From contig JBJCIZ010000313.1 in assembly GCA_051294375.1 (NCBI GenBank), forward strand, positions 1-10,993: DNA of 10,993 bases, written 5' to 3'. The DNA comes from Paraspadella gotoi. Its lineage: Eukaryota > Animalia > Chaetognatha. Below the pieces are notes generated by a model. It searched no databases. It was given only the letters and a program-made list of their open reading frames with translations, and had not been told where the DNA came from. Shown piece after piece: positions 981 to 10,972 of the stretch (positions within the stretch are counted from its first letter, which is position 1; every line of letters starts with the position of its first letter). Both the position numbers and the translations under genes were made by a program.

Positions 981-1340
981 CTCCTTTTTCTTTGTTGTAC
1001 ATTGCAAAAATGTATCTTTATTATTTATTTATCCCTGTTGTTTTGTTTCTCTCTCTCTCTCTCTCACTCTCTGTCTCTCTTTAACAAGTTTCACTTCTTT
1101 TCACAACTCACTCAATCTGCCCTTACCTTCAACCTGTCCTCACATCTGACCACTATTCTGTCTCACCACATTGTTGGAAAAACTTTTACCCCCTCTCTCT
1201 CTCTCTCACACTCTTCTTTTACACAAATTTATTATTAAATTTCATATGCTGATGAAGGCTTGAAGTAAACAAGCTGAAACATGTCCAACTATTAATTAAA
1301 AATCGTTGTTACAAATTCAAAATTTTTTGCTTTTTTTAAA
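981..1340 (+). mobile_element. Penelope-like element (PLE) pLTR-like fragment, non-coding
   Basis: CT-rich segment ending in a minimal type I hammerhead (1244-1292), followed by ATTAAA and a T-rich tail; it interrupts the AATT minisatellite. Boundaries approximate; no RT or GIY-YIG ORF seen. Confidence 0.5.
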
Positions 1341-1815: not shown

Positions 1816-3890
1816 AATGAACGAGCCAACAGAAAGACTGAAAGCGTGAGATGGCAAGGAAGAAAAAGGGAAAGGGAAAGGCTATCGAAAATAAAAAGGA
1901 TGCGACGAATTTGAATTGATCGTAAATTAAAAAAAAGCGAGGAAAATATATTTATGATAAGAAAGAAGAAGAAAGAAGGCCAAGTAGAGAGGAGTTTAAT
2001 GAGAAGATCTATTAAAAAAGAGATGAGGCAAAGGAAGTGTCTAATTTGATGCGTTGAGCGTGGGCAATGATAAGACACAATGAAAAAACGTGGCGAACGG
2101 TTTCGATCGATGCCTCTCTGATTTTAATCGCCTTAAGTAATTGTTCTGAGCGCAAATTAATTGATCATGTACTTTTTGGTAATATGTGCGATATATACTA
2201 CTGGACATTACTTGTTTATCTGACATGAGACCCTTGAACCATCAACAAAAATGCTACATAGATCAAAAATAGTAAAAAGATGAAGCAATATAGCTCGAAA
2301 CCTTACAAAATTTTTAGACCAGTGCTTTTATAAAAGCAAAAAAAATATTAATATTATTAAAACAAAACTTTAGAACTGATAAACAAATAGTTAAGCCTAG
2401 GACCAAGGAGAATATTTTTTACCCCATGCATTTTCCTCAATTTATATGAATCATTATTGTTATTACATAGTTTAATTAATTCTAAAATAACAGATATGAC
2501 AAATTTCATTTTCAATTTTCTTATTGAATGGGAAGTTTTCTCTGCTGTACTTCCCCTTTGTCTAATTATTTAATATTTTTAAGGTATTTTCAAAACCTTT
2601 ATATAATTAGCTGATATTTTTGCACTTTTTATTAATTCTTTCAAAGCAAAAAACAACATTATAAAAAACATTTTAATTAATAAAAAAATACTGATTGAAT
2701 GATTTTGGAAAAAAATATTTAACTCGAGAATAATGGATTATGAGTCAGGATAAAAATTTTGCAATTCTAAAAAAATCAAAGGCCTCTAGACCTTTCTGAT
2801 TTTTTCTAGAAGGCTGATTTTTTTATTTTTTTTGATTTATTTTGATTTTCTATGCCAAAACCATTATTCTCATATAAGTGCATAGGTCGGTCAAAATTTT
2901 TTTTCCAACAATTTGAAGAGAAGTATTTACACTGTTTTTAATTAGGCTTTTTTGGGGAGATAATAAATATTAATAATTATTAGTCGAATGCGGTACATCT
3001 GAAAGTGATATTGTCTCTAAAATGACAAAAATAATTTTCTTTCAAGTTTTGAATTTTAATGTTAATATTTAAATGCGCATAGAAATAGTGAGATTACTCC
3101 TGCTTTTCCGAAATTCTTTTAACAAAGTATTTTACTTGCGTAGATTTAAAATTATTTTTTTTAAACTAACTTTGGAACAGAAAAGAAGGGTAGCAAGGTG
3201 GATGTAGTGATCAAATTAAAGCCTAATCATGGGACATCCTTCTAAAATAGGAGTTTTATTAAATAAATCATAATCTTTAACACAGGCTTTTGTTTAAATC
3301 AGATTGTTAAAAGTAATAACAGTTTTTTGCTTTAAAAATATCAGAATAATGCACTATGACATATTTTTTCTTTTTCTTTTGTAATATTTGAAGGACAAGA
3401 CTGGATATTTACATTTTGGTTTATTTTATTAAATTTTTATTCCTAAAAAGTTGGCTTATATTTCTTCAGTTAAAGTAATAAACAAGCAAGAAATTTATGA
3501 TGTTTAGCTTGATAAAATGTATTGTTTAAATATTAAAAAGAATAATACAAAAATTGTTTCAGCTGATATAAACAGTCTGGACATCTACCTTCTCTGTTCT
3601 GGTAAAAAAAAAAATCGTCATTTTTATCAATCATTCTTTTACTTGCAAACCTAAAAGCTTGACACACTGCCTGGTTTATCCATAATAAAGTTAGTTAATA
3701 CAAATTAGTATTAGCCTCGCGGGTCAAACATATTTTGAACAAAATGCAAACACAGATCCATTTGTGGTAAAATTGTATTTAGATAGTGTTCGCTTACGCT
3801 TTCCAGATCGCGTCCACATCTCTGCTTCAGACATATGGCTATTGGATTCCTGAATTCTATGGTGGACTAAAATCCACCAACTGTTCATCA

Positions 3891-3962
3891 GCAGCCATTG
3901 GTGCCGGAGGCAAGTCATTCGCCTCCCAACCCAAAGGTCCGGGGTTCTAGACCGGTGGTCGC
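3891..3962 (+). promoter_or_regulatory. tRNA-derived (Gly-CCC-like) head / internal Pol III promoter inside the LTR; not a functional tRNA
   Basis: 72 nt; acceptor-like GCAGCCA/TGGTCGC (6/7 pairs incl. one G-T); A-box-like TGGTGCCGGAGG 3899-3910; B-box-like GGTTCTAGACC 3943-3953; loop CTCCCAA with CCC at 3925-3927 in the TCGCCTCCCA context typical of eukaryotic tRNA-Gly; anticodon and T stems are degenerate. Confidence 0.75.
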
Positions 3963-3964
3963 CT

Positions 3965-4040
3965 AGCAGTTAAGAGGGACGGGGCGCTTAACCCACCTGT
4001 AACACGCTGTTACAGCCTGATCCGAAGCTCAGGGACTGCT
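3965..4040 (+). ncRNA. Twister ribozyme-like motif, type-P5 permutation (P2 and T2 degenerate in this copy)
   Basis: P5 AGCAGTT/GACTGCT (3965-3971/4034-4040); GA-CGG 3978-3982; mini-P1 GGCGCT; T^AA 3989-3991; P3 CTGTAACA/TGTTACAG (3997-4004/4008-4015); P4 CCTGA/TCAGG (4016-4020/4029-4033); L4 TCCGAAGC; T1 pseudoknot CCG(4022-4024):CGG(3980-3982). Confidence 0.72.
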
Positions 4041-4087
4041 TACATTGAACGGTTCTGTCTTTAACACAATAATTACTGTCTCTTCAT

Positions 4088-4100
4088 TGGTGAGCCCGAC
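4088..4100 (+). promoter_or_regulatory. Primer-binding site (tRNA-Trp-like)
   Basis: TGGTGAGCCCGAC one base after the LTR-terminal CA; 12/13 match to the start of the classical tRNA-Trp PBS TGGTGACCCCGAC; identical at 6341-6353. Confidence 0.75.
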
Positions 4101-4105
4101 TTCCG

Positions 4106-4463
4106 NNNNNNNNNNNNNNNNNNNNNNNNNNNNNNNNNNNNNNNNNNNNNNNNNNNNNNNNNNNNNNNNNNNNNNNNNNNNNNNNNNNNNNNNNNNNNNN
4201 NNNNNNNNNNNNNNNNNNNNNNNNNNNNNNNNNNNNNNNNNNNNNNNNNNNNNNNNNNNNNNNNNNNNNNNNNNNNNNNNNNNNNNNNNNNNNNNNNNNN
4301 NNNNNNNNNNNNNNNNNNNNNNNNNNNNNNNNNNNNNNNNNNNNNNNNNNNNNNNNNNNNNNNNNNNNNNNNNNNNNNNNNNNNNNNNNNNNNNNNNNNN
4401 NNNNNNNNNNNNNNNNNNNNNNNNNNNNNNNNNNNNNNNNNNNNNNNNNNNNNNNNNNNNNNN
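4106..4463. other. Assembly gap (358 N) covering the TRIM internal region and most of the 3' LTR
   Basis: N run between the PBS and the resumption of LTR sequence (gaagctcagggactgct). Confidence 1.
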
Positions 4464-4601
4464 GAAGCTCAGGGACTGCTTACATTGAACGGTTCTGTCT
4501 TTAGCGCATAACAATAATTACTGTCTCTTCAATTCGAAGTTTATTGTAAAATCACAACATACCTTAAGGCCTGCGATCATTCAAACAAGAATTGCATAAA
4601 G

Positions 4602-4626: not shown

Positions 4627-5301
4627 ACTCAATCTGCCCTTACCCTTCAACCTTCCTCACATCTGACCACTATTCTGTCTCACCACATTGTTGGAAAAAC
4701 TTTACCCCCTCTCTCTCTCTCTCACATCTTCTCTTTACACAAATTTATTATTAAATTTCATATGCTGATGAATGCTTGAAGTAAACAAGCTGAACATGTC
4801 CAACTATTAATTAAAATCGTTGTACAAATTCAAAACATTTTTTGCTTCTTTAAATTAATAATTGAATATTTTATAATGTTTGCGGTGACTCAAACAAAAA
4901 TTTATAGAAAATTTGACGCTGTTTTTTGCTGATAAAACCTGGTATTATCAAAAAACAGTAATACAAAAATAAAAAATGATAAAATATAATAACAACAACA
5001 ACTAATATTTACATTGGCTGAGAAAACAGGTCAGCCATAAACAAGATTTGGTAAACAGGTCATTTATTGACTCACTACCTGTACTACGGCTCACAAAGTA
5101 ACACAAGTCTTCGTCGTTGTTTTTGTCATTGTATATCGTCGTTAGTCATCTTTTTCAAATCATTTGACTCCCAAATGTTCGATGTTATTAGTTTAATTAA
5201 TATGGAATTAATTAAATAATTTATTTTTTTCAATTAATTAATCAATAATTACTGCTAATGATAGTGGCAAATCGCGCATGTTGCTTCAAACTTGTTTATT
5301 A
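4627..5301 (+). repeat. Indel-rich second copy of 1110-1790, probably redundant long-read sequence
   Basis: Starts right after a 25-N gap, while copy 1 ends right at a 25-N gap; differences are dominated by homopolymer and single-base indels. Confidence 0.85.
4760..4807 (+). ncRNA. Second, error-bearing copy of the minimal hammerhead
   Basis: CTGATGA 4765-4771, stem II GCTTG/CAAGC, but GAA instead of GAAA before CATGTC; lies inside the duplicated segment. Confidence 0.5.
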
Positions 5302-6113
5302 ATATATTATTTATATATATTTATTTTATTTGCTTTTTTTCAGTGCAAAGGGGAAAAAAGAAAGAAGATAGAGAAGACGAGAGTGTGGTAGATGTATAAG
5401 CATAATATTATGTCAATATTGCCAATAAAACAGATCAATCCCTTTTGTTTAAACTTGTTTTGTAACATGAAAAACATTATGGATTTAAAAAAAGAGACTT
5501 TAAATTTAAAGAAAAATAATAAAATATAAGAATACAAATTTTTAATTTATATAGAATTAAAAAAAGTTTATTTAAATTATTAATTTAACTTCATTACAGT
5601 TTATTTTTCAGATATAAATATTTTTTTCCTACTCAGATTTATTTGAAATATATTAAAAAGAACAAATATGTAATTTTTTTCCATAGATTCGACCAAAAGA
5701 GGAAAGAGAATAAAAGAAAACAAAAAAATAAAAGAGAGAATAAGAAAAAGTGAATAAAAATTAGGAGCAAACCAATTTTAAATGTGAAAATAAATATAAT
5801 AACAAACAATTTTTAAAAGAAAAATCACAGAAAGAGCAGGGGGTTGCAGAAGATTTTTGATTACATTATAGATACCTCTTTCATTTCTGTACCAATTAAA
5901 AAACAAAGACCCAGGAAGCGAACACGCGCAGGGTTTTTATAGCTTCAGGTTCATCTTTATATCTTCAATTTCTTCTATTGTCTCTACTGCTGTTTCTTCA
6001 TCGGGTTCTTCAAAAATCGGCTCGCTTCCACAGTGTTCGCTTACGCTTTCCAGATCGCGTCCACATCTCTGCTTCAGACAATATGGCTATTGCGATTCTC
6101 CTGTAGCAAATTC

Positions 6114-6783
6114 TATGGTGGACCTCAAACTCTCACAACTGTTCATCAGCAGCATTGGTTGCGAGGCAAGCATTCGCCTCCAACCCAAAGGTCCGGGGTT
6201 CTAGACCGGGGTCGCTAGCAGTTAAGTAAGGGACGGGCGCTTAACCCACCTGTAAACGCTGTTACAGCCTGATCCGAAGCTCAGGGACTGCTTACATTGA
6301 ACGGCTTCTTTCTTAACACAAATAATTACTGTCTCTTCATTGGTGAGCCCGACTTCCCGAACACAACAGCAACAACAATACTTTCAGGCGACATGCCTCA
6401 ACTTGGTGACGAACTTTCCACCACAACACACCAAATCACTGAGAGACGCAAACAGAACTTCTCCCTCGATCGACTACGCGCTCGAGGGATGGTAATGGTT
6501 GGCGACTATAAATGTTTCAAGCCACAAGACCCGTTCATCAGCGCATTGAGCCATGTCTCGCGAGGCAAGTCAGTTCGATCGCCTCCCCAACCACAAGCGT
6601 CCGGAGTGTTAGCCCGGCTGCGTCGTCCATGCTGGCGAGTTAGGGTCCATGAGGCGCTTAACCACGCCTGCATCCACGCATGCTTACACCTAGATCCGAA
6701 CGACTCAGGGAACTGCTTACAGATATGCTGAACGATTCCTGTACTTTTAGCGCGAGACAATACACACTATCATCTGTCTCTCA
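6114..6783 (+). mobile_element. TRIM copy B (complete but noisy): LTR-PBS-~155 nt internal-PPT-LTR
   Basis: ATTC 6110-6113; LTR 6114-6339; PBS 6341-6353; purine-rich GAGGGATGGTAA 6484-6495; garbled 3' LTR ~6496-6783 keeping landmarks (gttcatcagc, gaggcaagtca, cgcctcccc, ggcgcttaacc, gatccgaa, tcagggaactgcttaca, ctgtctctca); ATTC 6784-6787. Confidence 0.75.
6217..6292 (+). ncRNA. Twister-like motif in the 5' LTR of copy B
   Basis: AGCAGTT...GACGG...TAACCCACCTGTAA..GTTACAG CCTGA TCCGAAGC TCAGG GACTGCT; same core as 3965-4040 with small indels. Confidence 0.6.
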
Positions 6784-6844
6784 ATTCTCGATAAAGTTTA
6801 TGGGTGAAAATCACGAACATATCTTAAAATGCTCAACTTTACCA

Positions 6845-6882
6845 CTAATTATAACTTTTGGCCAGTGATCCCAGGCCTTAAA
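6845..6882. repeat. 38-bp inverted repeat, left copy (partner 10935-10972)
   Basis: CTAATTATAACTTTTGGCCAGTGATCCCAGGCCTTAAA versus the reverse complement of 10935-10972, CTAATTATAACTTTTGGCCCGTGATCCCAGGCCATAAA: 36/38. Confidence 0.9.
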
Positions 6883-8375: not shown

Positions 8376-8580
8376 GGGTAGTATTATATATTAAAAAGTA
8401 AATATGTAATAAAAATTATATTTTATAATAAAATTAGCTAATTTTTCTAAACTGCGATAATTTTTTTTTATTATAATATAATTTAAAAATATAAAATTAA
8501 AATACAATTTTAATTTTAATAAAATATAATAATCATATTAAATATAATAAATTAAAATAATTTTTAATTTTTTTTATTTT

Positions 8581-8582
<2 letters not shown>

Positions 8583-8641
<59 letters not shown>

Positions 8642-8693
8642 TAATAATAATAATAATAAATAAAATATAAATATTTTATATTAATTATAATTA

Positions 8694-8761
<68 letters not shown>

Positions 8762-8772
8762 TTATTATTATT
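8583..8772. repeat. (AAT)n and (ATT)n microsatellites in inverted arrangement, inside an almost pure-AT tract (~8380-8925)
   Basis: (TAA)n 8583-8660, central ATAAAATAT-AA-ATATTTTAT 8660-8679, (TTA)n ~8691-8772. Confidence 0.95.
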
Positions 8773-9216
8773 ATATAATCTGATAATAATATATATTTTA
8801 TTATAAAATAATTTTATTTTATTTATTTAAAATTATACAAAATTACTTTTAAATTATTTTAATATTCAAATACATTTTTTTAAAAATATTTTTATAATTA
8901 ATATATAATAAAAAATTATTTTTAACTGAGCGGGATTTTTCTGAAAAATTCAGGCCCAGGACCTCACTGTGCGCCGGTTCTAAAGCTTAGTACTACGCAT
9001 AATACTAATCTTTGTTGGATCAAAACGAGTTCGATTTTAACCGAAAGTTGATCGGTTTGAAGAGCGATTTTTGCGATTGCTTTTTGGCGATTACTTTTGA
9101 ACAGATTGTCGGATTATGATGAAATTATGCATGTAGATAATGTTAGCAATTGTCTATCAAACGCTTCCAAATTTGATATAAAACAATGAGTTGTTTAGAA
9201 ACGTTGCTCATCCCAA

Positions 9217-9511
9217 ATTATATTGAAGTTTAGAAATCCCTTTATTTCATATATAAAAATTGCATCAAAAATATTTTTCCGAGTTGACTAGTCTATTTGA
9301 ATCTGATGGTTTGATGCCAAAATGATGGTTATTTGTTAAGAGGAAAAAATACGAGCTCTTGAGATGCAACAGGATCTAAATCAAGTGTTTTTATATCTAT
9401 TTTTTACCTGAATTTTTCCCAGGGGCGTTTACATTGTTTGGTAGTCAGATTTTAACGAAAATCTGCATTGAAAAAGTCTTCCTCGATTTCTAAGAACGAC
9501 GTAGACTCCTA
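9217..9511 (+). repeat. Left arm of a ~295-bp inverted repeat (partner 9920-10218)
   Basis: Collinear with the reverse complement of 9920-10218, e.g. ATTTGAATCTGATGGTTTGATG, TTTACCTGAATTTTTCCCAGG, GCGTTTACATTGTTTGGTAGTCAGATTTTA, CGACGTAGACTCCTA; roughly 85% identity by eye. Confidence 0.95.
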
Positions 9512-9919: not shown

Positions 9920-10218
9920 TAGGAGTCTACGTCGGTTCTCTAGAACATCAGAGAAGACTTTTTCAATGAAAATTTTTGCTAAAATCTGACTACCAAACAA
10001 TGTAAACGCTCCTGGGAAAAATTCAGGTAAACAATAGATGTAAAAACACTCAATTCCAATCCTGTTGCATCTGAAGGGCTCGCATTTTTTTCTTCTTGAC
10101 AAATAACCATCATTTTGACATCAAACCATCAGATTCAAATGGACTGGTCCGCTCCGGAAAATATTTTCGACGCAATTTTTTATATATAAAATAAAGGATT
10201 TCTCAACTTCAATACAAT
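9920..10218 (-). repeat. Right arm of the ~295-bp inverted repeat
   Basis: Reverse complement of 9217-9511. Confidence 0.95.
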
Positions 10219-10224
10219 GTCAAC

Positions 10225-10294
10225 GCATTTAACATATGTTGTGATTTTACAATAAACTTCAAATTCAGGAATCCGATAGCCATATATCTGGAAG
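10225..10294 (-). repeat. Empty-site paralogue of the sequence into which the TRIM inserted
   Basis: Reverse complement reads CAGATATATGGCTATCGGATTCCTGA-ATTT-GAAGTTTATTGTAAAATCACAACATA, joining the left flank (3828-3857) and right flank (4536-4561) of copy A with one copy of the 4-bp target. Confidence 0.9.
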
Positions 10295-10934: not shown

Positions 10935-10972
10935 TTTATGGCCTGGGATCACGGGCCAAAAGTTATAATTAG
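10935..10972. repeat. 38-bp inverted repeat, right copy (partner 6845-6882)
   Basis: 36/38 reverse-complement match to 6845-6882. Confidence 0.9.

Follow-up and report, generated by a model that had tools for sequence, protein, structure and literature searches.

A small noncoding LTR element of the chaetognath Paraspadella gotoi as a probable twister-bearing retrozyme

INTRODUCTION

LTR retrozymes are known from plants, and their described layout includes a PPT and a noncoding center (PMC4918200, PMC6765202). The task of turning a transcript into unit-length RNA and then into a circle has hitherto been described only for hammerhead ribozymes, in these plant elements, and it is by hammerheads that retrozymes are defined. 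Minimal hammerheads with a weak helix III, found in Penelope-like elements and amphibian retrozymes, cleave as dimers (PMC7761336). The twister is defined by a set of stems and pseudoknots, of which stem P1 is dispensable (PMC5408937), and within the literature searched it has so far been tied only to the 5' processing of non-LTR elements. The twisters of Schistosoma Perere-3 and RTE elements are single, lie at the 5' end of an autonomous non-LTR element, and have a P1 to which the target-site duplication (TSD) contributes, as described in PMC8501958, where 1.6% of twister variants are also reported to have an LTR-type reverse transcriptase downstream. In its accessible portions, a 2026 paper cites only the Perere-3 work for twisters in retroelements (PMC13725137); the accessible text of PMC5680766 and of bioRxiv 2022.07.19.500677 holds nothing on twisters in LTRs, and the word "twister" is absent from a 2024 retrozyme review (PMC11722881). 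Neither a twister in an LTR or a TRIM nor a natural dimeric twister was reported in anything our search returned; most subscription papers lay beyond its reach, and the supplementary lists of Roth et al. 2014 could contain such sequences.

Here we describe a locus in 10,993 nucleotides of P. gotoi DNA (contig JBJCIZ010000313.1 of assembly GCA_051294375.1; this whole stretch is called the window) that is probably a twister-bearing LTR retrozyme, none of which was found in print. An earlier examination of the letters alone (the sequence-only reading) had singled out a twister fold at 3965-4040. Our main conclusion, absent from that reading, is that this fold belongs to an element resembling an LTR retrozyme.

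RESULTS

A short LTR element within a 4-bp target-site duplication

The insertion (copy A) and a second rendering of it (copy B) have the following parts:

3854..3857, + strand: 5' TSD, ATTC
3858..4086, + strand: 5' LTR, 229 bp, TA...CA termini, member of a high-copy family
4088..4100, + strand: primer-binding-site-like sequence (PBS), starting TGG one base beyond the CA of the LTR; family contigs continue through it
4464..4531, + strand: copy A, 3' end of its 3' LTR; the N gap 4107-4463 takes up the remainder and the internal region
4532..4535, + strand: 3' TSD, ATTC
6114..6783, + strand: copy B, an error-rich second rendering of the same insertion, again bounded by ATTC, with a 5' LTR (6114-6339), PBS, noncoding interior, purine run (about 6484-6489), and noisy 3' LTR (to about 6783)

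Nine public runs (three studies, one organism) have 10 to 20% of the words of 3300-4106. The borders were examined in assembled contigs from six of them, in two sets (X1, X2, X4, and X6; and X1, X3, X7, and X6); X5, X8, and X9 were left out. Contigs stopped matching before 3858 in 117, 140, 64, and 26 cases (X1, X2, X4, and X6, respectively) and after 4086 in 52, 60, 29, and 23 cases. Since the flanks beyond both ends were unrelated among contigs (agreement of 0.41 to 0.46), the LTR is a high-copy 229-bp repeat with TA...CA ends. Empty-site contigs join 3856/3857 straight to the right flank. The element thus has two LTRs within a 4-bp TSD, as LTR retrozymes do; the motif in its LTRs is of the twister type, where a hammerhead would be expected, and a pattern search for hammerhead words gave no match on the LTR sense strand.

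The interior, as represented by copy B and by contigs, is short and noncoding and contains tandem units of about 36 nt (6384-6423 in the window); contigs loop back by 36 bases within it, and unit-length RNAs therefore probably vary in size. A purine tract ahead of the 3' LTR was seen only in the noisy copy B and in one contig. Copies A and B have a common left flank, right flank, and ATTC TSD, and copy B lies within an error-rich duplicated block, so it does not represent an independent insertion; its GC at T2, to which the sequence-only reading had appealed, accordingly carries no independent weight. Taken as a whole, the locus is a TRIM-type nonautonomous LTR element with a twister-type fold on its sense strand. 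The sharp LTR ends, together with the PBS and the 4-bp TSD, led us to reject a Penelope-type element with pseudo-LTRs.

The primer for the TGG-starting PBS may be a tRNA-Trp. The 3' end of a phage tRNA gene (L010:94-200) is complementary to the same 13 PBS letters, showing that the words of the PBS correspond to an actual tRNA end. This gene was the only return of a PBS-anchored scan of viral contigs for an autonomous helper, and the window holds no tRNA genes. The LTR starts with TA, not TG, and the loose-end majorities flanking it are AT-rich, with mostly ATAT-like letters abutting the LTR, which suggests a target preference. The target into which the element inserted belongs to the same dispersed repeat family as an inverted pair at 9255-9481 and 9953-10180 (88 to 89% complementary), and near 10240-10290 the - strand carries the target site uninterrupted.

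Other repeats and motifs in the window

Two sets of indel-rich duplicate blocks lie beside N gaps (1110-1790 versus 4627-5290, and 3784-4560 versus 6028-6830); such a block is probably an uncorrected long read or a second haplotype placed in the scaffold. At 1249-1285 (+) there is a minimal type I hammerhead-like motif comprising CTGATGA, a stem II hairpin, GAAA, a palindromic helix III (ACATGT, 1279-1284), and GTC. It has the dimer-type form known from Penelope-like elements, was found by pattern and unscored by Rfam, and recurs as a noisy duplicate near 4765-4800. A 33-bp inverted repeat pair (6845-6877 and 10940-10972; 32 of 33 positions identical, about 4.1 kb apart) may possibly represent the terminal inverted repeats of a DNA transposon. 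At 8580-8775, (TAA)n faces (TTA)n in a long AT palindrome. Protein searches with reading frames from the flanks gave no hits.

A type-P5 twister-type fold in the LTR

The fold in the 5' LTR of copy A has these parts:

3965..4040, + strand: type-P5 twister-type fold, 76 nt, closed by P5
3965-3971/4034-4040, + strand: P5, seven pairs, six of them Watson-Crick (3965-3970/4035-4040), plus U3971.G4034
3974-3977, + strand: 3' strand of P2; the 5' strand is 3 nt within 3989..3996
3978: G3978, predicted general base, just before A3979 and the T1 3' strand (role by analogy with PMC5408937)
3979: A3979, predicted to form a trans A.A pair with A4025 (role by analogy with PMC5408937)
3980-3982: CGG, 3' strand of the three-pair T1 pseudoknot (C4022-G3982, C4023-G3981, G4024-C3980)
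3983..3988, + strand: 6-nt self-complementary linker in place of the P1 hairpin
3989..3996, + strand: segment with the predicted cut, U3989/A3990, followed by A3991
3995-3996: T2 dinucleotide, AC in the window copy (A3995.C4028 mismatched, C3996-G4027 paired)
3997-4004/4008-4015, + strand: P3, eight pairs, in a hairpin (3997-4015) with a variable loop
4016-4020/4029-4033, + strand: P4, five pairs, in a hairpin with L4 (4016-4033)
4021-4028, + strand: L4, TCCGAAGC

The twister-type fold is real. P3 (8 bp), P4 (5 bp), P5 (7 bp), L4, and T1 all lie where the first examination had placed them, and its type-P5 order and predicted cut between T3989 and A3990 agree with the fold coordinates. The conserved features of twisters are present, namely, the G (base), the cut-site A (acid), the next A, and the U..AAGC of L4, and L4 and L1 are joined by three Watson-Crick pairs plus the A.A pair. 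P2 and P1 depart from the twister pattern. Instead of four pairs, P2 has two direct pairs and a third (C3994-G3974) that forms only with A3975 bulged, its 5' strand being only 3 nt long; the P1 stem, conserved yet dispensable in twisters, has no monomer hairpin here.

How unusual this arrangement is was gauged with a type-P5 twister descriptor with free T1 letters, one T2 mismatch allowed, 3 or 4 nt for P2, and 3 to 20 nt for the P1 region. Its sole matches within the window, both on the + strand, were copy A and the 5' LTR of copy B. None of 100,000 dinucleotide shuffles of the LTR matched (one T2 mismatch allowed). A second set of 60,000 gave 0 matches to the full descriptor and 0 to 2 with single elements dropped; with P2, P3, and P5 dropped together, 11 of the 60,000 matched. 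Among 180 fetched loci, 179 had the core words and none passed the descriptor. These rates are optimistic, because the descriptor was written with the sequence already in view; the match is nonetheless far from marginal.

The minimum-energy fold includes P3, P4, and P5 and is of ordinary stability (z of -1.77, with 11 of 200 shuffles equally good). It also contains a 3-bp hairpin with an 8-nt loop carrying a self-complementary GCGC, and the whole LTR is richly paired, both of which would suit a structured LTR RNA signal other than a ribozyme, e.g., a palindromic-loop hairpin for genome dimerization, with the twister words arising by chance. We consider this very improbable: none of 160,000 shuffles and none of the 180 control loci had the G-A/T1 complement, UAA, T2, P3, P4, and L4 together in this order and spacing.

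The covariance-model check proposed with the fold came out negative, with no Rfam twister model scoring at an E value of ≤10 over the window and over 3900-4100, scans that covered decayed window copies only. Pattern searches returned 9 and 1 matches in viral contigs, which were rejected as chance relatives; 15 matches in metagenome contigs (loci of 43 to 70% GC, full stem set absent) and 23, 12, and 120 matches to canonical or P3-order patterns in viral contigs were likewise rejected as chance. Prokaryote genomes gave 0 matches. No relative with a different T1 was present among the pattern matches in viral and metagenome contigs and prokaryote genomes.

Family state of the fold and decay of the window copy

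In the following, depth is the sum over overlapping contigs and not a copy count. Position 3995 was G in 97.4, 93.0, 99.7, and 99.6% of the depth in the four runs X1, X2, X4, and X6, and the loose-end majorities in X1, X3, X7, and X6 all agree on G. The T2 of the family is therefore intact (GC), with both pairs in the majority (93 to 99.7% of depth), and the window copy, with its A.C mismatch, is decayed, which bears out the sequence-only reading of AC as CpG decay. Six LTR positions set the window copy apart from the majority (3893, 3951, 3995, 4007, 4043, and 4060); of these, 3893 and 3995 are CpG-to-CpA changes. With one of its two T2 pairs lost, it is probably weakened or dead.

Within the 76-nt fold, variants reached 15% in any run only at 4005 and 4007 in the P3 loop, at 3965 in the terminal P5 pair, and at 3995; all other core positions stayed below 15% in every run (X1, X2, X4, and X6). 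The polymorphism amounts to 37 to 66% at 4005 and to 16 to 44% at 3965, where A-U becomes G.U. Such a pattern fits a conserved structure, although the evidence is thin. No variant of at least 3% was observed in these four runs at the conserved G, the cut-site A, the next A, or the U..AAGC of L4, nor in the linker. The same holds for P2, where all variants were below 3%; the short P2 is thus the family state, and the P2 repair that had been suggested for this copy is unneeded. One X6 contig carries a linker G>A together with a change of the first P2 base.

The T1 pseudoknot had been described as compensatory (CCG:CGG). The pairing is real, whereas its compensatory nature within the family is conjectural: the only T1 variants were uncompensated CpG decay, i.e., the T1-breaking G4024A (2.4 to 13.9%, the latter in X2) and C3980T (0.2 to 7.4%), and no compensatory change was seen in the within-family variant tables, which carry no haplotypes. 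T1 letters vary among natural twisters, so a different triplet is ordinary and the least novel part of the locus.

The repeats are AT-rich and CpG-decaying. Decay of at least 3% was found at 8 of the 10 LTR CpGs, the exceptions being 3960 and 3985, the latter in the linker; conservation of this CpG was discounted as support for the linker, since one X6 contig shows decay there. X1, X2, and X6 also contain a diverged LTR subfamily, with 37 differences over 202 bases (3858-4059) and no gaps.

Prospects for cleavage

In the whole-LTR context, P3 and P4 had pair probabilities of 0.98 and 0.93 (P4 0.84 to 0.94 overall). Nested folding, which leaves the five pseudoknot pairs out of the model, favored a rival hairpin (3981-3983/3992-3994) by 5.2 kcal/mol, with a pair probability of 0.78 to 0.83 versus 0.0 for P2, and gave P5 only 0.10 to 0.14 in longer contexts. 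The dominant rival hairpin, the 3-nt P2 strand, the absent P1 hairpin, and the absent Rfam score would all be in keeping with an inactive relic, derived from a twister by loss of a P2 base and the P1 stem and carried passively by an element that spreads as an ordinary TRIM; low family diversity fits selection or recent amplification alike. We nevertheless regard a relic as unlikely, because the family majority keeps all catalytic bases along with both pseudoknots and three stems, and because defects of P1 and P2, in pairing or in length, were without effect in tested twisters, all of them of type P1 (PMC11662667).

In the same work, cleavage was seen for about 94% of roughly 2,600 natural type-P1 twisters, fungal candidates were inactive, and a single mismatch in a 2-bp pseudoknot lowered mean cleavage from 0.76 to 0.53 (PMC11662667). 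A suggestion reported in PMC5408937 is that adding or deleting P2 pairs from the usual four might disrupt the active site. The T1-breaking G4024A and the X6 contig with an altered first P2 base also speak against activity. On balance, family copies with an intact T2 are probably active, without certainty.

The linker at 3983..3988 is unfavorable as a monomer hairpin (+5.6 kcal/mol) and favorable as a 6-bp self-duplex (-8.3 kcal/mol). Because it is palindromic, two LTR copies could share P1 in the manner of helix III of dimeric hammerheads. In such a double twister, cleavage would take place only with both LTRs in one transcript or in dimerized RNAs, and the shared P1 would also dissolve the rival hairpin. 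This proposal is speculative and we hold it with low confidence: by arithmetic, about 5% of random 6-mers would be self-complementary if G.U pairs are counted, and with P1 dispensable in twisters, dimer dependence is not required.

DISCUSSION

Proposed propagation of the element

The LTR borders, the 4-bp TSD, the empty site, the position of the PBS, the noncoding interior, the sense-strand twister core with its stems, and the majority T2 are all directly seen. We favor, with moderate confidence, the view that they belong to a small noncoding LTR element whose intact copies self-cleave in both LTRs, yielding unit-length RNA that is circularized as in retrozymes. Transcription would run through both LTRs, and each would be cut at U3989/A3990 with G3978 as base and A3990 as acid, releasing a unit of about 420 to 445 nt (the two predicted cut sites lie about 417 nt apart in copy B and 445 nt apart in copy A, where the distance spans the scaffold gap). 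A monomer in the P5 permutation would have its two cut ends held adjacent by P5, P2, and T1; this should favor circularization and re-form the ribozyme, and ligation of these ends would give the circle. A tRNA would then prime at the PBS, and reverse transcription and integration would be supplied, as in plant retrozymes, by a helper LTR retrotransposon, putatively of the Ty3/gypsy type given the 4-bp TSD, PBS, and purine tract (PMC4918200, PMC7761336, PMC6765202).

An active twister could also serve end processing, trimming a linear RNA from read-through host transcripts as in Perere-3, with no circular intermediate. In the accessible literature, 5' processing is the only role of twisters found in retroelements (PMC8501958, PMC7761336), and this precedent speaks for it. 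Cuts at the same site in both LTRs, however, would remove the terminal redundancy, and a circle would restore a template for two full LTRs. LTR reverse transcription needs terminal redundancy, and we judge end processing without a circle to be quite improbable.

If the retrozyme-like reading is true, the twister in both LTRs of this high-copy TRIM would represent a second, independent origin of the ribozyme-circle strategy, based on another ribozyme class, and would have a definite function within an LTR element. There would also be a P1-less, short-P2, P5-permuted subtype that the Rfam models miss, and others may be overlooked. Were the double twister true, an LTR retrozyme not based on hammerheads would be driven by a twister whose cleavage is gated by dimerization.

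Comparison with known systems

As a fold, the motif resembles the type-P5 twister (Roth et al. 2014 via PMC5408937; Rfam models) in having its termini in P5, in T1 (three pairs plus A.A), T2, P3, and P4, and in the core G, the U/A cut site, the A, and the L4 pattern. It differs in the 6-nt palindromic linker in place of P1, the 3-nt P2 strand, and its location in a eukaryotic LTR. With the Schistosoma Perere-3 and RTE variants it has in common a P1-poor twister within a retroelement; here there are two copies, they lie in LTRs, and the permutation is P5 (PMC8501958). The dimeric minimal type I hammerheads of Penelope-like elements and amphibian retrozymes offer a parallel from a different ribozyme class, in that a helix too weak in the monomer could be supplied in trans by tandem copies (PMC7761336).

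The closest likeness in layout is to the plant LTR retrozymes (Cervera et al. 2016, PMC4918200), which are likewise nonautonomous and noncoding, with a 4-bp TSD, a self-cleaving-type motif at the same place in each LTR (predicted in the present case), a PBS after the 5' LTR and a purine tract before the 3' LTR (both putative in the present case), and solo LTRs. The P. gotoi element differs from the plant elements, as described in that paper, in carrying a twister where they carry a type III hammerhead, in its shorter LTR (229 bp versus 300 to 400) and unit (about 420 to 445 nt versus 600 to 1000), and in its TA...CA termini; the plant primer is tRNA-Met (PMC4918200).
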